Positions 3,884 through 64,000 of a stretch of DNA of 64,000 nucleotides are shown here, piece after piece. The notes beneath the pieces are model-generated. The model made no database searches. It was not told the DNA's origin and saw only the letters and a list, made by a program, of their open reading frames with translations. The DNA comes from Bacteroidales bacterium (GTDB lineage Bacteria > Bacteroidota > Bacteroidia > Bacteroidales > UBA7332). The stretch lies in assembly GCA_051652645.1 (NCBI GenBank), contig JBOFUP010000072.1:17995-81994 (forward strand), given 5' to 3'. Each line of letters opens with the position of its first letter. Within the stretch, counting starts at the first letter, position 1. Both the position numbers and the translations under genes were made by a program.

Positions 3884-5872
3884 TTAGAAAGGTATACACA
3901 CTTTGAACCTATACTTTGAAAGTGATGAAACCACAGATATACTACCCTTTAACAGATCAATATATCCTTTTATGAGTGATAGCTTTAAGGCCACTGGCTC
4001 CTCTTCTATTGATGTAATCCCTCCCCTATAACGAACTCTGTTCAAATCACTTATTATTGTAGGTTCAACATAAAGACCCGTTGTTATTATAGTAAAACAA
4101 TAACTAATGGGGGTTATCTCACAACCAATCTGAACACTTCCAGAACTATTATACTTGAGTATGATAATCATTAAATTTCGAAGAATAGCATAAACCTTAT
4201 CCTTATCATTGCTAGCCTCAATATTCAACAACTCATCTGTAACTATAGCACTGATATCCACTCCACGACTATTCTTTTCGAGTCTAAACTCATCAAGAAG
4301 CATATAGAGTATCTCTCCAATATTAAGAATACCACTACAAGAGATAGCCAAACCTGAATCTATATGCGAGATCTCTACTAGATCATTTATTGTAGAGATC
4401 AACTGATCTCCATTCTGACGAATAATCCTAACAAAAGAGTCACTATCCTCACTCGAAACTTCACCAGCACATACAAGATCTAGAAATCCATATATTATAT
4501 TCAACGGAGTACGTATCTCATGCTGAAGGCTCTCAAGAAAACGACTCTTCATATTACTACTTCGCTCCGCTCTTACCTTTGAAAAGAGCAGCTCCATAGT
4601 CCTCTTATTGTTGGCTATTGCCATACCTATATTGTTTGAAATCGATCTGATAATAGGGATATCCTGTTCAATGAATGGATCACAATCGAAATAATCATCA
4701 ACAACCAATACTCCCCAAAGCTGAGTGTCGACAAAAACGGGAAAGACAAGAAGATTTCTTACTCCATTCGATCTCAAATGATGACCCATGTCACCAGGCA
4801 ACCTTGATGATTCAACTACTATATCCCTATTCTTAATGATATCCTCTAAAAAAGGTAAGAACTCTTCAAACAACACCTCTCCCCTTACAACATCCACTCT
4901 TCCCAAATAATCTTCTCGAGTGTAGGAGTTACGAACAAAAAGGGAATCTCTTCCTTGCAAACCGTCATCTCTCTGATACAAAGAGATACGTCCAAAATTA
5001 GTAGCCTCAACAATAAGTTGGAGCGACTCTGGGATAGTCTCATTCAATGGCCTATCAGAGAGCAATATCTGGCTTACCTCGGATGAAGCATTAAGTATAC
5101 TGTTTAGCCTAAAAATACGATCTTCTGCCTCCTTAATCTTTGTTATGTCCTCTTTTATTGCCACATAATGGGTTATCTCACCATCTAGAAATAGTGGCCA
5201 CACAATGGCTTTCTCCCAATACAACGAACCATCCTTACGCCTATTATGAAACTCACCACGCCATCCCACACCAGAGGATATTGAACTCCACAAATCTTCA
5301 TAAGTTGACCTTGGGGTGTTTCCTGACTTAAGGACACGAGGATTCAAGCCTTTTACCTCTGACTCTTCATAATGAGTAATCTCAGTAAACTGCTTGTTGA
5401 CATACTGTATATTCCCATCAGTATCAGTAATAACAATTACGCTCAAGCTCTGATCTGTCGAAGTAGCCAAGCGTGACAAATAATGCTGCTCCTCAAGAAA
5501 AGTTTTAGGATCAAAGAGATAACCTGAAAATGAGAATACCTCACCGTGAGTATCACGACAAGGCATAACAAAAAGCAGAACCATATTTTCCCTCTGAGCA
5601 TAGCGCTTTGATAAGACTAAAGGGCGTAGCGTAAAAACATCTTCTCGACTTGAAACGCATGATTCAATATGAGACAATATATATTCATGCTCAGATGAAT
5701 CAAAGATATCTAATATAGATTTTGTACTACTCCTCAACTCATCCTTTGAGCATGAGAAAATCTTCTCAACTCCATCACCAATATCAACAATAGGTAAACC
5801 ATAGCTATTAGTCCATTTGAATTCAAGAACTGAGCTATGATTTAACGCCTCCAATAAGTAGTCCATATCCAT
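3884..5872 (-). CDS. PAS/GAF sensor histidine-kinase-like protein with a degenerate ATP-binding domain
   Basis: It has a PAS-like segment (VIVITDTDGNIQYVNKQFTEITHYEESEVKGLNPRVLKSG...WRGEFHNRRKDG). A GAF-like segment follows. The H-box is LQHEIRTPLN. The C-terminal domain lacks canonical N/G1/G2 boxes. Confidence 0.75.
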   Translation of the reverse strand: MDMDYLLEALNHSSVLEFKWTNSYGLPIVDIGDGVEKIFSCSKDELRSSTKSILDIFDSSEHEYILSHIESCVSSREDVFTLRPLVLSKRYAQRENMVLLFVMPCRDTHGEVFSFSGYLFDPKTFLEEQHYLSRLATSTDQSLSVIVITDTDGNIQYVNKQFTEITHYEESEVKGLNPRVLKSGNTPRSTYEDLWSSISSGVGWRGEFHNRRKDGSLYWEKAIVWPLFLDGEITHYVAIKEDITKIKEAEDRIFRLNSILNASSEVSQILLSDRPLNETIPESLQLIVEATNFGRISLYQRDDGLQGRDSLFVRNSYTREDYLGRVDVVRGEVLFEEFLPFLEDIIKNRDIVVESSRLPGDMGHHLRSNGVRNLLVFPVFVDTQLWGVLVVDDYFDCDPFIEQDIPIIRSISNNIGMAIANNKRTMELLFSKVRAERSSNMKSRFLESLQHEIRTPLNIIYGFLDLVCAGEVSSEDSDSFVRIIRQNGDQLISTINDLVEISHIDSGLAISCSGILNIGEILYMLLDEFRLEKNSRGVDISAIVTDELLNIEASNDKDKVYAILRNLMIIILKYNSSGSVQIGCEITPISYCFTIITTGLYVEPTIISDLNRVRYRGGITSIEEEPVALKLSLIKGYIDLLKGSISVVSSLSKYRFKVCIPF

Positions 5873-13108: not shown

Positions 13109-13182
13109 GGTTCCGTAGCTCAACTGAATAGAGCATCTGACTACGGATCAGAAGGTTACAGGTTTGAATCCTGTCGGGATCA
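13109..13182 (+). tRNA. tRNA-Arg (anticodon ACG)
   Basis: I folded a cloverleaf by hand: acceptor GGTTCCG/CGGGATC, D-arm GCTC/GAGC, anticodon stem TCTGA/TCAGA with loop CTACGGA, T-arm ACAGG/CCTGT with loop TTTGAAT, discriminator A. CCA is not encoded. Confidence 0.9.
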
Positions 13183-13190
13183 CCCTTAAA

Positions 13191-30000: not shown

Positions 30001-30008
30001 ATCAAGGG

Positions 30009-30082
30009 TGATCCCGACAGGATTCAAACCTGTAACCTTCTGATCCGTAGTCAGATGCTCTATTCAGTTGAGCTACGGAACC
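30009..30082 (-). tRNA. tRNA-Arg (anticodon ACG), second copy
   Basis: The reverse complement is identical base-for-base to 13109-13182. I checked this block by block. Confidence 0.9.
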
Positions 30083-54632: not shown

Positions 54633-55628
54633 ATGTTATTTGAATCATACGATCGTCGTATTGCTAAAATCAACGCTGAGTTGAACAACTACGGCATTGC
54701 AAACATCGAAGAGGCAAAAGCTATCTGCGAGGCAAAAGGAATCAACCCTTACCAAATCTGCGAAGAGACACAGGCTATCTGTTTCGAAAACGCTAAATGG
54801 GCTTACGTAGTAGGTGCTGCTATCGCAATCAAAAAAGGAATCACAAATGCTGCTGAAGCTGCTGAAGTTATCGGTATTGGTCTTCAAGCATTCTGTATCC
54901 CTGGATCAGTAGCAGAAGACCGCAAAGTAGGTATCGGCCACGGTAACTTGGCTGCTATGCTTCTTCGCGAAGAGACAAAATGTTTCGCTTTCCTTGCAGG
55001 TCACGAATCATTCGCTGCAGCTGAAGGTGCAATCAAAATCGCTGAGATGGCAAACAAAGTACGTACTGAGCCTCTACGCGTAATCCTTAACGGATTGGGT
55101 AAAGATGCAGCACAGATCATCTCACGTATCAACGGATTTACTTATGTTCAAACACAGTTTGACTACGCTTCAGGCGATGTAAACGTTGTTATGCAGAAAG
55201 CATACTCAGAAGGTCTTCGCGCTAAAGTACGTTGCTACGGTGCAGACGACGTTCGCGAAGGTGTTGCTATCATGCGTAGCGAAGGTGTTGACGTATCTAT
55301 CACAGGTAACTCAACTAACCCAACACGTTTCCAACACCCAGTAGCTGGTACATACAAAAAAGAGTGTATGGAACTAGGTAAAAAATACTTCTCTGTTGCT
55401 TCAGGTGGTGGTACAGGTCGTACACTTCACCCAGACAACATGGCAGCAGGTCCTGCTTCATACGGTATGACAGACACTATGGGTCGTATGCACGGTGACG
55501 CTCAATTCGCTGGTTCTTCTTCAGTTCCTGCACACGTTGAGATGATGGGCTTCCTAGGTATGGGTAACAACCCAATGGTAGGTGCTACAGTTGCTGTAGC
55601 GGTTGCTATCGAAGAGGCTTCAAAATAA
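54633..55628 (+). CDS. GGGtGRT family protein (function unknown)
   Basis: It contains the eponymous motif ASGGGTGRTLHPDN. Confidence 0.85.
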   Translation: MLFESYDRRIAKINAELNNYGIANIEEAKAICEAKGINPYQICEETQAICFENAKWAYVVGAAIAIKKGITNAAEAAEVIGIGLQAFCIPGSVAEDRKVGIGHGNLAAMLLREETKCFAFLAGHESFAAAEGAIKIAEMANKVRTEPLRVILNGLGKDAAQIISRINGFTYVQTQFDYASGDVNVVMQKAYSEGLRAKVRCYGADDVREGVAIMRSEGVDVSITGNSTNPTRFQHPVAGTYKKECMELGKKYFSVASGGGTGRTLHPDNMAAGPASYGMTDTMGRMHGDAQFAGSSSVPAHVEMMGFLGMGNNPMVGATVAVAVAIEEASK

Positions 55629-55915: not shown

Positions 55916-57134
55916 ATGGGAAAAACAAGCTACAAAGTTAGTTTTAGAGTCGTTGAAACTAGACTAGATTCAGAAGGTTATGCACCTTTCGATGTTATCA
56001 TTACTCAAAACAGTAAACGAGTATTTTTTTCAGCTGGTAAAAAAGTTCCGGCTAGTTTATGGGATAAGGTAAAACAAACCTTTAAAGGGAGAGGAGAAGA
56101 AGTAAATACTTTGAATAACTACCTTACTTCATTAAAAGCAAATATCTATCAAAAAGAGATTGAGCTTAGAGATAGAGGATTTGAAGTAACACCTCAGACT
56201 CTTAAAGATGCTTTCTTTAATCAGATTGAAGTAATGACAGATTCTACATTACTTGAAGTTTTTAAATGAGAAACAAGCAGCATTATATAAATTGGGAAGA
56301 CTAAGTAAAGCTACCATTTATATGAATGATTCTACTTTAAAATTGCTTACTGCATTTATTCAGGAAAGGTATAAGAGAAAAGATTTATATCTTAAAGAGC
56401 TTAATTTAGACTTTATGGAGCGTTTTCATCTTTATCTAATGACTGACAAAGGAATGAGAAATAATACTACTACAAAGCATTTAAAGCTATTAAAACGTAT
56501 ATGTAATGAAGCTGTAGAGAATAACAAAATTACTGCTAATCCTTTTGCCAAATATAAAGTAGTCCGGGATAAAGTAGAAATTGAGTTTCTAACACAAGAA
56601 GAAATAGATAGAATCTATGCTACAGACTTTGGAATAGAAAGACTAAACAGAATGAGAGATGTTTTCATCTTTAGCTGTTATACTGGATTAGCTTATTCGG
56701 ACTGTAAGCAATTATGTGAAGAACATATTAGCATTGATGCTGATGGTAGATATTGGATTAGAAAGAAAAGACAGAAGACAGGTAATTTATCAAGAATACC
56801 TATGCTTCCAATTCCTAAAGCTATTATGGAGAAATACAAAGGGTGTAAATATGGTGGGTATATTGTTCCTGTTGTAGATTGCTCTTCTACCAATTCTTAC
56901 TTAAAGGAAATTGCTACTATATGTAGAATTGATAAAAGAATAACTTTCCATGTTGCAAGACATACATTTGCAACTACAGTTACTTTAGCTAATAAAGTAT
57001 CATTAAATGTAGTCAGTAAGATGTTAGGACATGCTTCAATTAAAATGACTGAACACTATGCTAAAGTTGTAGATGAAAGGATAGCTGATGAAATGGATAA
57101 ATTGATGCAATTAGAAAAAACTCCTATAATTTGA
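55916..57134 (+). pseudogene. Bacteroides-type tyrosine recombinase/integrase, split by a frameshift
   Basis: ORF 55916-56269 is an Arm-DNA-binding N-terminus. ORF 56253-57134 holds the SAM-like and catalytic domains (HVARHTFAT, LGHASIKMTEHYA). The frames join at the T5A3 run at 56259-56266. The second ORF has only a TTG pseudo-start. Confidence 0.75.
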
Positions 57135-57380
57135 ATATATTTCAAGTTATAGGAGTTTTGTTTTGTCTGTCTTCAAATTAAATATAACATGTCTTTATGT
57201 CTTATAATGACAATATGTCATAATAATATTATATGATACATATTGGCACTATATTTGTTTTATAATATTAAATAAAGCATATGATATGTATACTTAAAAA
57301 GAAGGAGGTGATTTTAAAAGCCATATAATAAGATGGATAATGATAGCGTTCGAGTTGTTTTATAAATTAATATTAAAAAA

Positions 57381-57878
57381 ATGAAGTTAACTAATAAAGA
57401 GAGATTGTTTTTAATGAATCAGTATTTGATTCTTGATAAACTATATCCAGATTATGGTTATAGTAGAAATATATCTATATTAAAGAATGGGTTTAGTAAA
57501 GAATATTCTGATTTAGAATCACATATATATAAAGAAATAACTGAAGAAAATTGTGATTTTGTATATGATGTATTAGAAATGTATAGAAGCATTTATGATT
57601 CAAATGCACAATTTAACATCCCTAATACTCGATTTCCAGGTTTTGATGGCAATAATCCTGATGGCTGTTTGAATTATGCAACATTTCTTATTGATGAAAA
57701 GGGATTATATGAAGAACATAAAAATTCTAATGGATATAACAGCCATTTGTCAGTTAATACTAAATATAGGAATATGCTAGCTAAATGGAAACCGATATAT
57801 GAAGAGAGAATTAATTGGGGTGTAGGTCATGCTTTCTTATCAAAAGAAGAAATTAAAGAATTACTAAATACCTATTGA
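57381..57878 (+). CDS. YfbU family protein (UPF0304)
   Basis: LTNKERLFLMNQYLILDKLYP, FPGFDGNN, YRNMLAKWK and LSKEEIKELLN parallel E. coli YfbU as I recall it. Confidence 0.7.
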   Translation: MKLTNKERLFLMNQYLILDKLYPDYGYSRNISILKNGFSKEYSDLESHIYKEITEENCDFVYDVLEMYRSIYDSNAQFNIPNTRFPGFDGNNPDGCLNYATFLIDEKGLYEEHKNSNGYNSHLSVNTKYRNMLAKWKPIYEERINWGVGHAFLSKEEIKELLNTY

Positions 57879-58055
57879 TTGAAATTGATAAGATTGTTGC
57901 TTTAATAGCAATTTCGTAAATGTCAATTAATACAAATACTCGATATTTACTAATATAAAAAGCTACCAAATATCAAGGTGGCTTTTTATTTGTATTTTAC
58001 TTACTGAATTAGTGATAGTTGTGTAATAATTGATTAGATTATATATTACTAATTC

Positions 58056-59737
58056 GGGTCTGCTGAATAAATATAAATACTTGATTATCAGTAAATAAAT
58101 TCATTTTTATTAGTCCAATTGATATTAAATTACTATATTTGAGTGTTAAAAACAAGGACTATGAAATTCTAATCACAAGGAAAACAGCTCGAAATAGACG
58201 AATTTAAATCTTCATTACAGGGGCTTAACAAATCTAATCGATGGGTTAAGCTTGGAGATTCTATGCCCTGGGCTGAAATAGAAATACTCTATAATTCTAA
58301 ACTGGGAAATAATAAACGTGGAGCCGGTAATAAGCCAGCCAGAATGATTATTGGTGCATTGATCATAAAGCATAAAATGAATCTATCTGATGAAGAAACG
58401 ATTTATACTATACAAGAAAATCCTTACATGCAGTACTTTCTGGGGCTTTCGGAGTTCACAGATAAACCGATCTTTAACTCTAGCTTGTTTGTGACTATCC
58501 GTAAGCGTTTAGGTACCGATGATTTTAATGAAATGAGTCTGACATTGTTATTGACTCAACTTGAGAAAGCTAAATCAGCTAATCAATCGGACAAGGATGA
58601 AAAGGATAAAAAGGATAAAAACAATACCCCTAACTCTTCCAGTGCGAATCAAGTATCAGAGAATGAATCACAATTTACAGACAGCCAGGGACGCAAGCAT
58701 CAAGGATCACTAAAGATTGATGCAACTTGTGCAGATGCAGAAGTTCGCTATCCTACAGATATTGATTTACTTCATGATAGCTCAAGGGTAATCAATCGAT
58801 TGATGTCTAAATTGTGTAAGAACTTTTCGCTTCAACAACCGAACTCCCACTACAAGCAGGCGCGAAAGTCGTATCTTGAAGTGATTAAACGAAAAAAGAA
58901 AAGCAAGAAACTGATTAATAACGGAAAGTTAGAGCTATTAGCTTATCTGGGTAGGGATATTCATAGTTTTGTTACGCTTATAGCAACAAATGGGACTCAA
59001 CTTCTCTACAAGCTCAGATCTGATGAGCAGCGCCTTGTAGGAAGTATCATTAAAGTATTTTCATCAACAGAAAGCAATGTTTAAGGACAATGCTCGGAGT
59101 TGTCCAAATCGGATAATAAGTATTTTTCAAGCGCATCTTCGTCCTATAGTCAGAGGTAAGGCTAAATCTATGACTGAATTCGGAGCAAAAATTGGAGCTA
59201 GTATTACAAACGGATTCACATTTATTGATCACCATAGTTGGGATGCTTATAATGAATCTTCGGATTTGGAACTGCAAATACAATTGTTTGAAAAACGTTT
59301 TGGATACCTCCCTGCGAAACTTTATGCTGATAAAATATACCTTAACAAGTCTAACAGACAACTACTCAAAACTTATGAAATAGAAGTAATGGGTACTCCT
59401 TTAGGGAGGCCATCTGCTGAATCAAAGACAAAAGAAGCTAGAGCTAAGCAAGCAAAAATAGCTGGAGAACGCAACGAAATAGAAGCTACATTTGGAACAG
59501 CAAAAAGAGTTTACAAGGCGAATAATATCAGAGCAAAGTTACCGGAAACGGCTAACTCTTGGACTGGTATGTGTTACCTTGTGAAAAATGTGATGGAGTT
59601 TCTAAGGAGGCTTCTTCATGCGCATTTTTTAATGACTGTTATTTCGAAAATTTACGGCAAAATTCGGATAACTATTCTACCGGATCAAAATAATGTGATC
59701 CGCTGCCATTTAGCCTATTAATTTATTCAGCAGACCC
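58056..59737 (+). mobile_element. Insertion sequence (IS1182/IS5-like) with 17-bp perfect terminal inverted repeats
   Basis: The left end GGGTCTGCTGAATAAAT (58056-58072) matches the reverse complement of the right end (59721-59737). It encloses a DDE transposase reading frame. Confidence 0.8.
58161..59721 (+). pseudogene. DDE transposase (InsH-N/DUF772 + DDE_Tnp), disrupted
   Basis: An in-frame TAA is the fourth codon (ATG AAA TTC TAA at 58161-58172). A frameshift near 59050-59080 splits the gene into ORFs 58263-59084 and 59077-59721. Confidence 0.7.
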
Positions 59738-59805
59738 TAAATAACCTTATCATTGACTTTTTTGATAAATTATTATACAATTTAGGAATAATCTTTTGTA
59801 GCTTT

Positions 59806-61317
59806 GTGTCTATACAAATTCAATTCTATATGCTACTCGACTTTATCATTAATCAGACAGAAGCCTTTCTTAACTCGAAGACTAAAAGTGAAAGAAAGCT
59901 AATCGGGCAATTCTTTACCTCAAAAGAAACGGCTATTTACATGAGTAGTTTATTTGAAATACCTGAAAAAGAATCGTTATCTATTCTTGATCCCGGATCA
60001 GGATCTGGAATACTTTCAGCTTCATTGGTCGAATATTTGTATACGAATTATCCCAATAAAGAAATTAAGCTTACATGTTACGAGAATAATCCCGATATTT
60101 TACCTGTTTTGCAAGGAAATCTGGAATATCTACGTTCAAACATGAATATGAAGTTTGAATATACTATTAATACGGATAATTATATAGCAAGTCAGAAAGC
60201 AGAATTTAATCATGAACTAATTCGAGAGCTGGATCCTCATAAATATGATTTAGTAATCGGCAATCCGCCTTATCTGAAAGTATCAAAAGATGCTGTAGAA
60301 GCTAAATCCATGCCCGAAGTTTGTCATGGAGCTCCTAATTTATATTTCTTGTTTGCAGCCATGAGTCTTTTTAATTTAAAAGACGAAGGTGAATTGGTTT
60401 ATATCATTCCAAGATCCTGGACTTCAGGTGCATATTTTACCCGATTCAGAGAATATTTGCTAAAAAAGGGTCAGATCATGAATATACACCTTTTTGTATC
60501 AAGAGATAAAGTCTTTGAAAAAGAAGAAGTTCTTCAGGAAACCATCATAATAAGAATAAAGAAGACAAAGAAAGTAAATCCGGAAATTACAATAACGACT
60601 TCCAATTCTAATCAGGATTTTCATAGTATAAGTCATTTCAGAGTAAAAAGAGAGGTCGTTATCTCAGGTAAAAGTAAATTCATCTTTCTTGTTACGAATG
60701 AACAGGAAGTTCAGATTTTAGAAAAGATAGAGAAGTTTTTATACACACTTCCCGACTTGAATATAAAAATGAAGACAGGCTTAACGGTCGACTTTAGATG
60801 TCAGGAACTGCTGTGTGATGTGCCCGAGAGCGATACCGTTCCATTATTCTATTCTCAGCATATCCAAAACGGATCTGTCGTTTTTCCCATCGGGAAAGAA
60901 AAAGAGTATATCAAGACTTCTCAGAAAGGACTGATACAGAAAAATGAAAATTATTTATTCGTAAAGCGCTTTACAAGTAAAGAAGAGGCTCGACGATTAC
61001 AATGTGGAATATATCTTTCGGAAAATTATCCCGATTATGATTATATTAGCACCCAAAATAAGATCAACTTCATTGGTCAGATGAAAGGCGATGCGCTGTC
61101 TGCTGATTTCATTTATGGACTTTACGTACTGTTTAATTCAACCATATACGATAAATACTATCGCATACTGAATGGCTCAACACAGGTAAATTCTACCGAA
61201 GTAAATACACTTCCTGTCCCCGATGCTCATACAATTGAGGTTTTAGGGAAACAACTCAAAGATCCAGCAGATCTGTCAACCTCAAATTGTGACCTTATTT
61301 TAGATACTATATTATGA
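59806..61317 (+). CDS. N6-adenine DNA methyltransferase (Eco57I/M.PstI/M.BsuBI-like, gamma class)
   Basis: It has the AdoMet motif LDPGSGSGIL and the catalytic GNPPY. The track start is GTG at 59806, and a likelier ATG lies at 59830. It overlaps the endonuclease gene by ATGA. Confidence 0.8.
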   Translation: MSIQIQFYMLLDFIINQTEAFLNSKTKSERKLIGQFFTSKETAIYMSSLFEIPEKESLSILDPGSGSGILSASLVEYLYTNYPNKEIKLTCYENNPDILPVLQGNLEYLRSNMNMKFEYTINTDNYIASQKAEFNHELIRELDPHKYDLVIGNPPYLKVSKDAVEAKSMPEVCHGAPNLYFLFAAMSLFNLKDEGELVYIIPRSWTSGAYFTRFREYLLKKGQIMNIHLFVSRDKVFEKEEVLQETIIIRIKKTKKVNPEITITTSNSNQDFHSISHFRVKREVVISGKSKFIFLVTNEQEVQILEKIEKFLYTLPDLNIKMKTGLTVDFRCQELLCDVPESDTVPLFYSQHIQNGSVVFPIGKEKEYIKTSQKGLIQKNENYLFVKRFTSKEEARRLQCGIYLSENYPDYDYISTQNKINFIGQMKGDALSADFIYGLYVLFNSTIYDKYYRILNGSTQVNSTEVNTLPVPDAHTIEVLGKQLKDPADLSTSNCDLILDTIL

Positions 61318-62231
61318 AAAAAACAGAAAACGCTAATTCTATCTTAAAGTCTATAGGAATGCCGGACCGGCAACAGACAGAACTCTGTTGTTATGTTCTG
61401 CTTGCGATGGCTGGAGTAAAAGAAAAAAGTACATGGACTAAAGCGACGAATGAATGGATCAGGATTCATGACATAATTATATTTTTAGCCGAAAACTATG
61501 ATAAGAAGTATGCCGAAAACTCGCGTGAGACAATTCGCAAACAAGCGTTACACCACTTTCGCACTGCAGCTTTAATCGAAGATAATGGGAAGGCTACAAA
61601 CTCTCCCAATTATAGGTATAGGTTAACTTCAGAAGCGTTGCATCTGATTCAGACTTTTAATAAAAAAGAATGGAAAACTGAATTAAGCTCGTTTCTTTCG
61701 AGTCACGAAAAGTTGATTGATATATATGCTTCAAAAAAGACGATGCGTAAAATGCCTGTTGAAATCAACGGTGAATCATTCACTTTTTCACCGGGAAAAC
61801 ACAATCAGCTTCAAAAGGCAATAATCGAAGATTTCGCTCCACGCTTTGCTCCCGGATGTAAGTGCCTCTATGTTGGTGATACTACAGCCAAGGATCTTTA
61901 TAAAGACAATGAGACGCTTGAACGTATCGGATTTAATCTGACTCTTCACGATAAAATGCCCGATGTTATTCTTTACAAAGAAGATTCAAACTGGATCTAT
62001 TTTATCGAAGCGGTTACATCTGTCGGACCTATGGATGCTAAGCGTATTCAGGAAATATCTGAATTTACTCAAAATATATCTGCAGGTAAAATTTACGTAA
62101 CTGCTTTCCTGGACTTCAAAACTTTCAAAAGCTTTTCGGAATCTCTGGCTTGGGAAACAGAAGTCTGGATTGCCGATATGCCTGAACATATGATTCACTT
62201 GAATGGAGATCGTTTTTTAGGTCCGAGATGA
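61314..62231 (+). CDS. BsuBI/PstI family type II restriction endonuclease
   Basis: GKHNQLQKAIIEDFAPRF...YVGDT...MPDVILY...IEAVTSVGP...AWETEVWIADMPEHMIHLNGDRFLGP matches the family pattern as I recall it. Confidence 0.8.
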   Translation: MKKTENANSILKSIGMPDRQQTELCCYVLLAMAGVKEKSTWTKATNEWIRIHDIIIFLAENYDKKYAENSRETIRKQALHHFRTAALIEDNGKATNSPNYRYRLTSEALHLIQTFNKKEWKTELSSFLSSHEKLIDIYASKKTMRKMPVEINGESFTFSPGKHNQLQKAIIEDFAPRFAPGCKCLYVGDTTAKDLYKDNETLERIGFNLTLHDKMPDVILYKEDSNWIYFIEAVTSVGPMDAKRIQEISEFTQNISAGKIYVTAFLDFKTFKSFSESLAWETEVWIADMPEHMIHLNGDRFLGPR

Positions 62232-62287
62232 GAGAAGAGGAATATAGAATGTGGACGAATTAAATCAATAACGAAATTAGCATAATA

Positions 62288-63403
62288 ATGAAAGAGAATG
62301 ATTTGAATTTACAAATTGATGCAGTTAGAAAAGAAATAAAAACAGATAATTTCAGTATTTCCATTCGAGAGTTAATTCAGATATACAAAGATGGTGATTT
62401 GGAACTTACTCCTGCATACCAAAGATTATTCAGATGGCAAGATGATCAGAAAAGTAGATTTATAGAGTCATTATTAATAGGTATCCCAACTCCTCCTTTA
62501 TTTATAGCTCAAAAAAAAGGAGCAAAATGGACCATTGTAGATGGGCTACAAAGGGTATCTACACTTTTACAATTAATGGGACTTCTGCCAGATAGTAAAA
62601 ATAAAGAAGAGCTTCTGCCGGAATTTACTTTTACAGAAACAGAAAAACTGCCTGCTTTAGAAGGGTTAACGTGGAGTACATTGGATGAAGATGCACAAAG
62701 GATAATCAGAATGTCAAAGCTCGATTTAAAGATTATTTTAGTTGAAGATAATATTGAAGCACAATATGAATTATTCAAGCGATTAAATACTGGGGGCCTT
62801 GAACTTGAACCTCAGGAAATACGCAATTGCTTAATAATAATGGCAGATGAAGAGTTTTATAAGAAAATAGAGAATATTAAATCTGATCCAGAATTTGTTA
62901 GCTCAATTTCACTTTCTCCAAATAAGCATCAGATTGAACTACCAATGGAGCTTATATTGCGTTATTTTATTATGAAGAATGATAAAATAGATTATACCAA
63001 GTATAATATGCAAACTACTTTATTATCGCAGTTTATAGATAAAGAAACAATTAGTATTATTAATGATACTGAATTTAACATTAATAATGAAATCTCTATA
63101 TTCGAACGTGTATTTAAAGTGCTTAATACTGCCATCCCTGGAGGAGTATTCCGAAAATATAATACTGATAAATCAGACTTTGAAGGACCATTTCTTCAAA
63201 ATTTATTTGAAGCAATTGTTCCAGGGATAGCAAATAATATTGATTATTATGAACAGGCAAATTCAGAACAAGTTAAGGATAAAATTATTCAAATGCAAGA
63301 CAAAGATCAATATCTTGAAGGAGCAAAACGAGGTGTTAAAGCATTAACCAGAATCAGATCAATGATTGAATTTTCTAATGATTATTTTGGAAGTCATGAG
63401 TAA
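62288..63403 (+). CDS. DUF262 (ParB/Srx-like, GmrSD N-terminal type) domain protein
   Basis: The DGLQR motif (nt 62540-62554) corresponds to DUF262 DGQQR. YQRLFRW lies upstream. No DUF1524/HNH C-terminal domain is present. Confidence 0.8.
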   Translation: MKENDLNLQIDAVRKEIKTDNFSISIRELIQIYKDGDLELTPAYQRLFRWQDDQKSRFIESLLIGIPTPPLFIAQKKGAKWTIVDGLQRVSTLLQLMGLLPDSKNKEELLPEFTFTETEKLPALEGLTWSTLDEDAQRIIRMSKLDLKIILVEDNIEAQYELFKRLNTGGLELEPQEIRNCLIIMADEEFYKKIENIKSDPEFVSSISLSPNKHQIELPMELILRYFIMKNDKIDYTKYNMQTTLLSQFIDKETISIINDTEFNINNEISIFERVFKVLNTAIPGGVFRKYNTDKSDFEGPFLQNLFEAIVPGIANNIDYYEQANSEQVKDKIIQMQDKDQYLEGAKRGVKALTRIRSMIEFSNDYFGSHE

Positions 63404-64000
63404 TGAGGAATTTGAAAATCTAATGTTTGATGAGTGGACTTGGCGTAGGAAAGAGCTGACACAATTAATACTTATAGCAGAGCACACAAAAGAAAAAGTT
63501 CTTTACAGAAGTATTATCCTACTTTTGTATGCTCATTGGGAAGGATATATCAAAAAGGCTTGTAGGATTTATTTATATTATATAATTAGTAATAAATATA
63601 AAATTTCATCACTACAAGATAACTTCAAAGCCCTCTGCTTAAAAGGCTTTTCGAGAGAAGTATTAAAATCCTCAGAGTCACTTAATTTAACCAATGAGAT
63701 GAGGCTGGTATCAATGATAAATGAAGTAGATGATATTCTTATTGATAAAAAGCTAAAAGTTAACCTCAATAATGACAAGGAAAAAGATCTTATTGATACA
63801 CACGATAACTTAAATCCTAAAGTCCTACAGAATATATTATCAATAATTGGACTTTCTTATAAAGAAGAATATGAAAATAAAAAGATGTATATCGAGACTT
63901 ATTTATTAGCTAATCGTAATGCTATTGCGCATGGGAACAAAGAAATAAATCAAGACTTCGAATTAGAAATATCAAAATTAAAGGAACTGAGGGATGTTAT
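63396..64000 (+). CDS. HEPN-domain protein (MAE_28990/MAE_18760-like), partial, runs off the window
   Basis: This ORF is not in the ORF track. My translation from the ATG at 63396 is open to the window end. It contains LLYAHWEGYIKK and the Rx4H motif RNAIAH (nt 63915-63932). Its start overlaps the DUF262 stop (ATGAGTAA). Confidence 0.7.
   Translation, partial: MSNEEFENLMFDEWTWRRKELTQLILIAEHTKEKVLYRSIILLLYAHWEGYIKKACRIYLYYIISNKYKISSLQDNFKALCLKGFSREVLKSSESLNLTNEMRLVSMINEVDDILIDKKLKVNLNNDKEKDLIDTHDNLNPKVLQNILSIIGLSYKEEYENKKMYIETYLLANRNAIAHGNKEINQDFELEISKLKELRDV

Follow-up and report, generated by a model that had tools for sequence, protein, structure and literature searches.

A 64,000-nucleotide stretch of Bacteroidales DNA (here called the window) ends in two overlapping genes, one encoding a DUF262 protein and the other a HEPN protein, and the question that this locus raises is what kind of system two such genes form and how their products might act together. 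The pair is another example of a known DUF262–HEPN kind, distant from the Escherichia coli system PD-T4-2. On balance, we lean towards a reading in which it constitutes an anti-phage module of the PD-T4-2 type, self-contained and coupled in translation, with the DUF262 protein as a sensor that would release a HEPN RNase and lead to abortive infection.

The DUF262 gene (62288..63403, + strand), as read from the sequence, encodes a protein of 371 residues that is the proposed sensor and regulator of the pair. The second open reading frame (ORF) starts with an ATG at 63396 and is open through the end of the window (201 codons). It corresponds to the first 201 of the 254 codons of a HEPN gene in the MAE_28990/RiboL-PSP family (63396..64000, + strand), which is truncated by the window edge and encodes the proposed RNase effector. 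The sequence ATGAGTAA (63396–63403) contains both the stop codon of the DUF262 gene and the start codon of the HEPN gene, giving an overlap of 8 nt. A preliminary description of this DNA had reported the second frame as an ORF missed by the ORF track. The frame is real, starts at 63396 and overlaps the DUF262 stop, but it is already annotated at NCBI; its absence from the track is probably due to the truncation at the window edge. The full-length HEPN protein, whose recovery had been proposed in the same description, was obtained through a protein search as an NCBI entry from a Bacteroidales metagenome-assembled genome that is 100% identical across the visible part. The complete protein has 254 residues, and just 53 codons of the gene fall past the end of the window. 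NCBI labels this entry 'MAE_28990/MAE_18760 family HEPN-like nuclease', and a second entry, labelled 'DUF262 domain-containing protein', is 100% identical to the DUF262 protein of the window.

Searches of Pfam with the visible HEPN fragment gave matches to HEPN_MAE_28990 (PF18737; E = 4.5e-27, 96 bits) and HEPN_RiboL-PSP (PF18735; 4e-22, 79.5 bits). With the full-length protein the scores rose to 107 bits for PF18737 (1.7e-30, covering profile positions 2–211 of 211) and 83.8 bits for PF18735. Both sets of scores are far over the Pfam gathering cut-offs (26.8 bits for PF18737 and 28.4 bits for PF18735), and the matches are therefore not due to chance. Two signatures characterize HEPN domains, the first being Rx4-6H with a polar residue after the arginine and the second Ex3[KR] (PMC3710099), and both are present in the window protein. 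The Rx4H catalytic motif is RNAIAH (residues 174–179, nt 63915..63932, + strand), with a polar residue after the arginine, and R174, N175, I177 and H179 are invariant in an alignment of 88 HEPN homologues. The second signature, E49-G-Y-I-K53, lies within HWEGYIK (residues 47–53, nt 63534..63554, + strand), itself part of the segment LLYAHWEGYIKK (residues 43–54), and includes the acidic/basic Ex3K motif typical of HEPN domains; H47, W48, E49, G50 and K53, and hence both signature residues, are invariant in the same alignment. The AlphaFold 2 (AF2) model of the protein is confident and all-alpha, with a predicted local distance difference test score (pLDDT) of 91.5, and the one good structural match that it gave in BFVD is to a same-family protein from a phage. 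By these sequence comparisons, the second protein is classified as a MAE_28990-family HEPN protein with an intact predicted Rx4H site. HEPN domains with the Rx4H motif are RNases that need no metal and usually serve as toxins or in abortive infection (PMC3710099), and metal-independent RNase activity is the most likely function to be predicted for the protein in the window.

The sole Pfam match of the DUF262 protein is GmrSD_N/DUF262 (PF03235; 8e-24, 85 bits against a gathering cut-off of 33.2 bits, residues 29–183), and no DUF1524/HNH domain was found in it with Pfam. The protein carries the QRxxxW motif of DUF262 (motif named in PMC12065111) as QRLFRW (residues 45–50, nt 62420..62437, + strand) and a DGQQR-type NTPase motif as DGLQR (residues 85–89, nt 62540..62554, + strand). 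Mutation of the glutamine or arginine of the latter motif abolishes defence in HEC-06 (bioRxiv 10.1101/2024.01.29.577857). Among 52 DUF262 homologues, Q45, R46, W50, D85, G86, Q88 and R89 are invariant, and conservation extends along the entire length of the protein, with a mean column identity of 65%. A Foldseek search of the PDB with the AF2 model (pLDDT 87) gave 20 top matches that are all ParB-family or DUF262 structures, with weak E-values of 2e-3 to 0.4; the leading ones are pNOB8 ParB-N (probability 1.00), BrxU, CTP/CDP-bound ParB (ParB-CDP), Noc, PadC and SspE. The C-terminal half of the model, from about residue 175, is chiefly helical. Among the PADLOC models, NsnA (1.1e-58; residues 15–358, profile positions 42–370 of 385) outscores PD-T4-2_A (PDLC04027; 6.7e-35; residues 25–367, profile positions 39–361 of 363), and the GmrSD-like models HEC-06 (1.5e-3) and SspE (4e-4) are marginal. 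The profile matches and the predicted structure together identify the protein as one with the NsnA architecture, in which a predicted N-terminal ParB-fold NTPase-type domain is followed by a helical C-terminal 'ParBDB' domain. The DUF262 domains of SspE, GmrSD and BrxU are NTPases and sensors that control an attached nuclease (PMC10952713, PMC12065111, bioRxiv 10.1101/2024.01.29.577857); the sensor role is established for SspE and GmrSD and has been proposed for NsnA (PMC10952713, PMC12065111).

Most of what the preliminary description had read from the letters is upheld by these results: the two genes overlap, the second is cut off by the window edge with 201 of 254 codons visible, RNAIAH is an Rx4H signature with invariant key residues, and the DUF262 protein has a DGLQR motif, with invariant D85, G86, Q88 and R89, in a protein whose only Pfam match is GmrSD_N and which has no DUF1524/HNH domain. 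To call the pair GmrSD-like with a substituted nuclease, as it did, is not the closest fit, given matches of 1e-58 to NsnA and 7e-35 to PD-T4-2_A against 1e-3 to 4e-4 for the GmrSD-like models.

The distribution of the two genes was surveyed by scanning one genome per species, which gave at least 587 loci with relatives of the HEPN protein, the best 80 of which were analysed. These 80 loci span more than ten phyla, among them Bacteroidota, Cyanobacteria, Dehalococcoidia, Proteobacteria, Firmicutes, Actinobacteria and Acidobacteria. A DUF262 gene encoding about 365–380 residues lies directly upstream, on the same strand, in every one of them (80/80). An independent scan of IMG/VR yielded 37 contigs carrying more distant HEPN relatives, and all 37 likewise have an upstream DUF262 gene, bringing the total to 117 of 117; as evidence that the two genes co-occur in other genomes, this is as strong as could be. 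The DUF262 stop and the HEPN start overlap in 66 of the 80 loci (by 4 nt in 49), and a further 12 have a gap of 20 nt or less. Pairwise identities of the DUF262 and HEPN proteins across loci are highly correlated (r = 0.89, Mantel p = 0.001). The pairing is obligate, translation of the two genes is usually coupled and the proteins co-evolve. The HEPN proteins of the 80 loci fall into two clades, a 'long' one of about 250–260 residues, which comprises the 28 loci closest to the window, and a 'short' one of about 215 residues, which comprises the other 52.

Upstream of the pair are two genes that are classified, from their sequences, as a BsuBI/PstI-type type II restriction-modification system. 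The first (59806..61317, + strand; 503 residues from the first GTG, the putative start) encodes an Eco57I-type N6-adenine DNA methyltransferase, with matches to Eco57I (5e-19) and N6_Mtase (2e-10) in Pfam and to MTase_II (9e-108) in PADLOC and an NPPY motif in the translation. The second (61314..62231, + strand; 305 residues) overlaps the end of the methylase gene by 4 nt and encodes a BsuBI/PstI-family type II restriction endonuclease, with Pfam matches to BsuBI_PstI_RE (2e-61) and, for an N-terminal helix–turn–helix, BsuBI_PstI_RE_N (5e-42). The end of the endonuclease gene is separated from the DUF262 gene by 56 nt. Of the 28 closest loci, 24–26 have a homologous methylase next to the pair and about 21 a BsuBI/PstI endonuclease. 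The genes are arranged in three ways: methylase (M), endonuclease (R), DUF262, HEPN; M, DUF262, HEPN, R; and an M::R fusion with the pair after it. The closest relative (75–78% identical; L122/L123) has the same gene order as the window, and a Bacillus cereus plasmid carries the cassette in its M::R fusion form. The restriction neighbourhood, a context absent from the preliminary description, is not a matter of chance: four genes (Eco57I-type methylase, BsuBI/PstI endonuclease, DUF262 and HEPN) make up a conserved cassette, with the pair as its 3′ half. In the short-HEPN clade no conserved third gene was found, each Pfam family being seen in at most 5 of the 101 neighbouring genes. The DUF262–HEPN pair is therefore autonomous, having become fixed to one restriction family in the clade of the window. 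A sigma-70 promoter and terminator scan for operon boundaries, which does not cover Bacteroidota promoters, gave results no different from those for shuffled sequence.

The association of these two domains has been described before. Anantharaman 2013 (PMC3710099, Table 1) linked the MAE_28990 HEPN family to a ParB-fold DUF262 partner and a methylase neighbourhood. With the same HEPN family (PF18737), the same partner and the same neighbourhood, this entry is a direct match to the window cassette, although it is a one-line computational note and says nothing of the BsuBI/PstI endonuclease, of the three gene orders or of how obligate the pairing is. Makarova 2013 (PMC3632139) found COG1479/DUF262 to be often fused to HEPN and suggested a programmed-cell-death system tied to DNA modification. 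Vassallo 2022 (PMC9519451) reported PD-T4-2 from E. coli ECOR65, annotated 'DUF262, HEPN', which emerged from a selection against T4 and was validated against that phage, also by deleting it from its native strain. The preliminary description had taken the pairing to be predicted only computationally and uncharacterized. That can no longer be maintained, with the link described in 2013, a PD-T4-2 system that blocks T4 reported in 2022 and names for both proteins at NCBI. In reviews, PD-T4-2, Menshen and Dazbog are counted among the DUF262 systems that lack DUF1524. Our literature search gave no paper on the mechanism of PD-T4-2 and none on the trigger, RNA target or structure of any MAE_28990-family HEPN, and our PDB searches gave no solved structure of that HEPN family.

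PD-T4-2 (A = RCO39066.1; B = an unannotated ORF in QOYX01000002:338334-339873) was compared with the window pair through PADLOC models and the published HHpred table rather than by direct alignment. Both consist of two adjacent co-directional genes, a DUF262 gene without DUF1524 followed by a HEPN gene of the RiboL-PSP/MAE_28990 type, and the PD-T4-2_A model matches the window DUF262 protein almost end to end. Unlike the window pair, PD-T4-2 is only 1.54 kb in total, and its B protein of about 165 residues is recognizable as HEPN through HHpred only (best matches PF18735 at 97.8% and PF18737 at 96.9%; PMC9519451 Table S3), whereas the window B protein has 254 residues and a direct Pfam match. 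PD-T4-2 was also cloned without restriction genes, whereas the window pair adjoins a BsuBI/PstI-type system. As judged from these profiles, the window pair shares the architecture of PD-T4-2, and its A protein is homologous; its B half, which the PADLOC PD-T4-2_B model does not recognize, is at the sequence level a putative member only.

Other DUF262 systems resemble the window pair in part. Along its entire length the window DUF262 protein resembles NsnA, sharing with this Menshen protein (NsnABC; Millman 2022; PMC12065111) the ParB-DUF262 and helical 'ParBDB' domains, and the logic proposed for Menshen, a DNA sensor coupled to an RNase effector (PMC12065111), is like that proposed here. In contrast to Menshen, the effector in the window is a HEPN protein encoded directly downstream. 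Because the window stops within the HEPN gene, the comparison draws on related loci, the closest relative among them: neither the NsnB ABC-ATPase nor the NsnC inPIN effector was found there beside the pair. The gene after HEPN in these loci is the endonuclease or something unrelated, with ABC/SMC-type ATPases in at most 5 of 101 neighbours. Identity with Menshen was rejected because no NsnB or NsnC is present in the homologous loci. With GmrSD, BrxU and SspE the window protein shares an N-terminal DUF262 NTPase domain with a DGQQR-type motif, and BrxU and SspE are among its top structural matches. It differs from them in having no DUF1524/HNH domain, marginal PADLOC scores and an effector that is a separate HEPN protein, and identity with a GmrSD-type type IV enzyme was rejected on account of the absent DUF1524 and the helical C-terminal half. 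Two further candidates were set aside. DARNA, a characterized system, is PD-T7-3 and not a renamed PD-T4-2; PD-lambda-5, considered as a fused version of the cassette, is a loose analogue only: its domain is ParBc, its HEPN signal is very weak and its methylase is of the D12 class.

How might the pair act? A defence role is supported because PD-T4-2 protects against T4 and divergent pairs sit in P2-like phage genomes, and the coupling of a sensor to an RNase suggested in the preliminary description is plausible. In the mechanism that we favour, the DUF262 protein would most likely bind DNA and sense some sign of infection, for instance foreign or modified DNA, while the HEPN RNase would be kept inactive in a complex with it. 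An NTP-dependent conformational change in the DUF262 protein would then release or activate the RNase, and the freed HEPN protein would cut tRNA or mRNA, stopping translation and leading to abortive infection. In the clade of the window, the pair would probably serve as a second line behind the restriction system. We infer that the proteins form a complex, that DNA is sensed, which RNA is cut and that the infection is abortive; what we observed are the domain identities, motif conservation, obligate pairing, co-divergence and restriction linkage.

Several points weigh against this reading. The case for the window locus and its subfamily is one of sequence comparison and predicted structure. 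The Foldseek search of the PDB with the AF2 model of the HEPN protein gave noise, with nothing below E = 1, and sequence-profile searches of the PDB with the protein gave no match even at E = 10. Because no solved HEPN structure matched, the HEPN assignment draws on curated Pfam profiles and motifs and not on fold comparison; of the two routes by which the preliminary description would have had the fold confirmed, profile search succeeded and structure search of the PDB with Foldseek gave no hit. The PADLOC PD-T4-2_B model did not match the window HEPN protein or three homologues at E-values up to 10, nor did it match the plasmid and phage HEPN homologues described below. The 3′ neighbour of the HEPN gene was judged from homologous loci, the window ending within that gene. 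Finally, the PstI/BsuBI site CTGCAG is not depleted in the window (11 occurrences against 12.3 ± 3.4 expected). This gives no sign of an active system of PstI specificity, but the specificity here may differ; the count is uninformative, and avoidance of CTGCAG was dropped as an indicator of an active PstI-like system. Two of the 11 sites lie within the endonuclease gene itself.

The restriction linkage also raises the tentative and, in our estimation, rather unlikely alternative that the pair is functionally wired to the BsuBI/PstI system, as a type II counterpart of PrrC–EcoprrI. Silenced by physical contact with the methylase and endonuclease, the pair would act as a guard: its ParB-fold NTPase would keep watch on the restriction complex, or on the DNA that this complex acts on or generates, and would unleash the HEPN RNase if restriction is evaded or inhibited by a phage. 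The trigger would be either a phage anti-restriction factor that disables the two enzymes or the appearance of their DNA products. PrrC, a HEPN RNase, is controlled both by an NTPase domain and by a linked restriction system; it is encoded inside a restriction-modification operon, as a second line of defence (PMC3710099). The adjacency of one restriction family in about 21–26 of the 28 closest loci, across several phyla, is consistent with such a guard, as are the insertion of the pair between M and R in loci L001–L007 and the existence of M::R fusion variants. The likeness of the window pair to PrrC–EcoprrI and RloC, in which a HEPN RNase is under an NTPase module, is an analogy of logic and not homology of the regulator: in PrrC and RloC an ABC-type NTPase is fused to HEPN and the restriction system is of type Ic, whereas the window has a separate ParB-fold DUF262 protein and a type II system. 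Moreover, the restriction system is absent from the short-HEPN clade (52 of 80 loci) and from 33 of the 37 viral contigs, PD-T4-2 was still protective when cloned as two genes alone (PMC9519451 Table S2), and co-divergence of the restriction genes with the pair is moderate (r ~0.5), as against ~0.88–0.89 between DUF262 and HEPN.

It is more doubtful still that the two proteins are independent nucleases, with the DUF262/ParB-like protein acting as a DNase or nickase on phage DNA and the HEPN protein separately cutting RNA. Anantharaman (PMC3710099) and Makarova (PMC3632139) treat ParB/DUF262 domains as restriction-linked nucleases, and the Joint Genome Institute (JGI) calls homologues 'ParB-like and HNH nuclease domain' proteins. 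In the DUF262 proteins that have been reviewed, however, it is DUF1524 that cleaves or nicks and DUF262 that serves as NTPase and sensor, and the window protein has no DUF1524; the strict gene overlap and tight co-divergence also fit a complex better. Lastly, the overlapping two-gene operon with a toxin-type HEPN domain, found in the window on a low-GC island that also holds an integrase and an insertion sequence (IS) element, and elsewhere on small plasmids (for example, a 5.7 kb Col-type one), would suit an addiction module in which DUF262 neutralizes a HEPN toxin and whose main role is to stabilize the restriction cassette or mobile island, but we hold this to be improbable for an upstream partner so large (371 residues), so highly conserved and with invariant NTPase motifs, unlike typical labile antitoxins, and for a relative of PD-T4-2, which has a demonstrated defence phenotype; addiction and defence are, in any case, not mutually exclusive.

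The window pair belongs to the DUF262–HEPN class, PD-T4-2 and its relatives, which is still a mechanistic black box, and the questions of trigger, target, structure and restriction coupling concern this whole class and not the window locus alone. The clade of the window is a cleaner object of study than PD-T4-2, offering direct profile matches for both halves, invariant catalytic residues and absolute pairing. Its fixed linkage to a PstI-type restriction system provides a testable case in which defence would be layered, restriction acting first and the RNase backing it up. The PADLOC v2 models recognize the DUF262 half only, and loci of this kind are thus likely to be missed in surveys or mis-scored as partial Menshen systems.

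Divergent DUF262–HEPN pairs are carried by the P2-like phages Escherichia virus P2_4B2 (L120, 140–2015) and Klebsiella phage ST16-OXA48phi5.4 (L121, 2351–4254). Their HEPN halves, annotated 'hypothetical', match HEPN_MAE_28990 (7.6e-18) or HEPN_RiboL-PSP (3e-07). PADLOC sees the DUF262 half alone in both, and these phage pairs are probably under-called as defence systems. The pair was also found on a few plasmids. In the Enterobacter cloacae plasmid pRHBSTW-00675_3 (L081; 5.7 kb, mobilisable Col-type), the HEPN gene (46–717) is annotated 'hypothetical' and a DUF262 match at about 4659–5597 is not in the gene table of the plasmid, which also carries a RelE/ParE toxin–antitoxin pair. Flavobacterium johnsoniae CI04 (L009, 3114–5030) has a second, divergent DUF262 gene (372 residues) followed by a RiboL-PSP-type HEPN gene broken into two ORFs; this second pair is transcribed divergently from the methylase that precedes the main pair, and the two paralogous pairs flank one methylase.

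In the window, the cassette lies on an island of low guanine + cytosine (GC) content (55916–64000; 28–35% GC, compared with about 38–44% in most of the window) that starts right past a GGGtGRT-family gene (54633–55628). The contents of the island (an integrase, a YfbU gene at 57381–57878, an IS element and the defence cassette), together with its low GC content, suggest horizontal acquisition. The tyrosine integrase is split into two overlapping ORFs, 55916–56269 (Arm-DNA-bind_5) and 56253–57134 (Phage_int_SAM_5 and Phage_integrase), which could mean that the gene is frameshifted, that it is a pseudogene or that the assembly is wrong here. An IS transposase that lies just upstream of the methylase is likewise split into two overlapping ORFs, 58263–59084 (DUF772 transposase domain) and 59077–59721 (DDE_Tnp_1_2), and is either a frameshifted copy or a case of programmed frameshifting. 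Elsewhere in the window, two tRNA-Arg(ACG) genes separated by about 17 kb, at 13109–13184 (+ strand) and 30007–30082 (− strand), are oppositely oriented.

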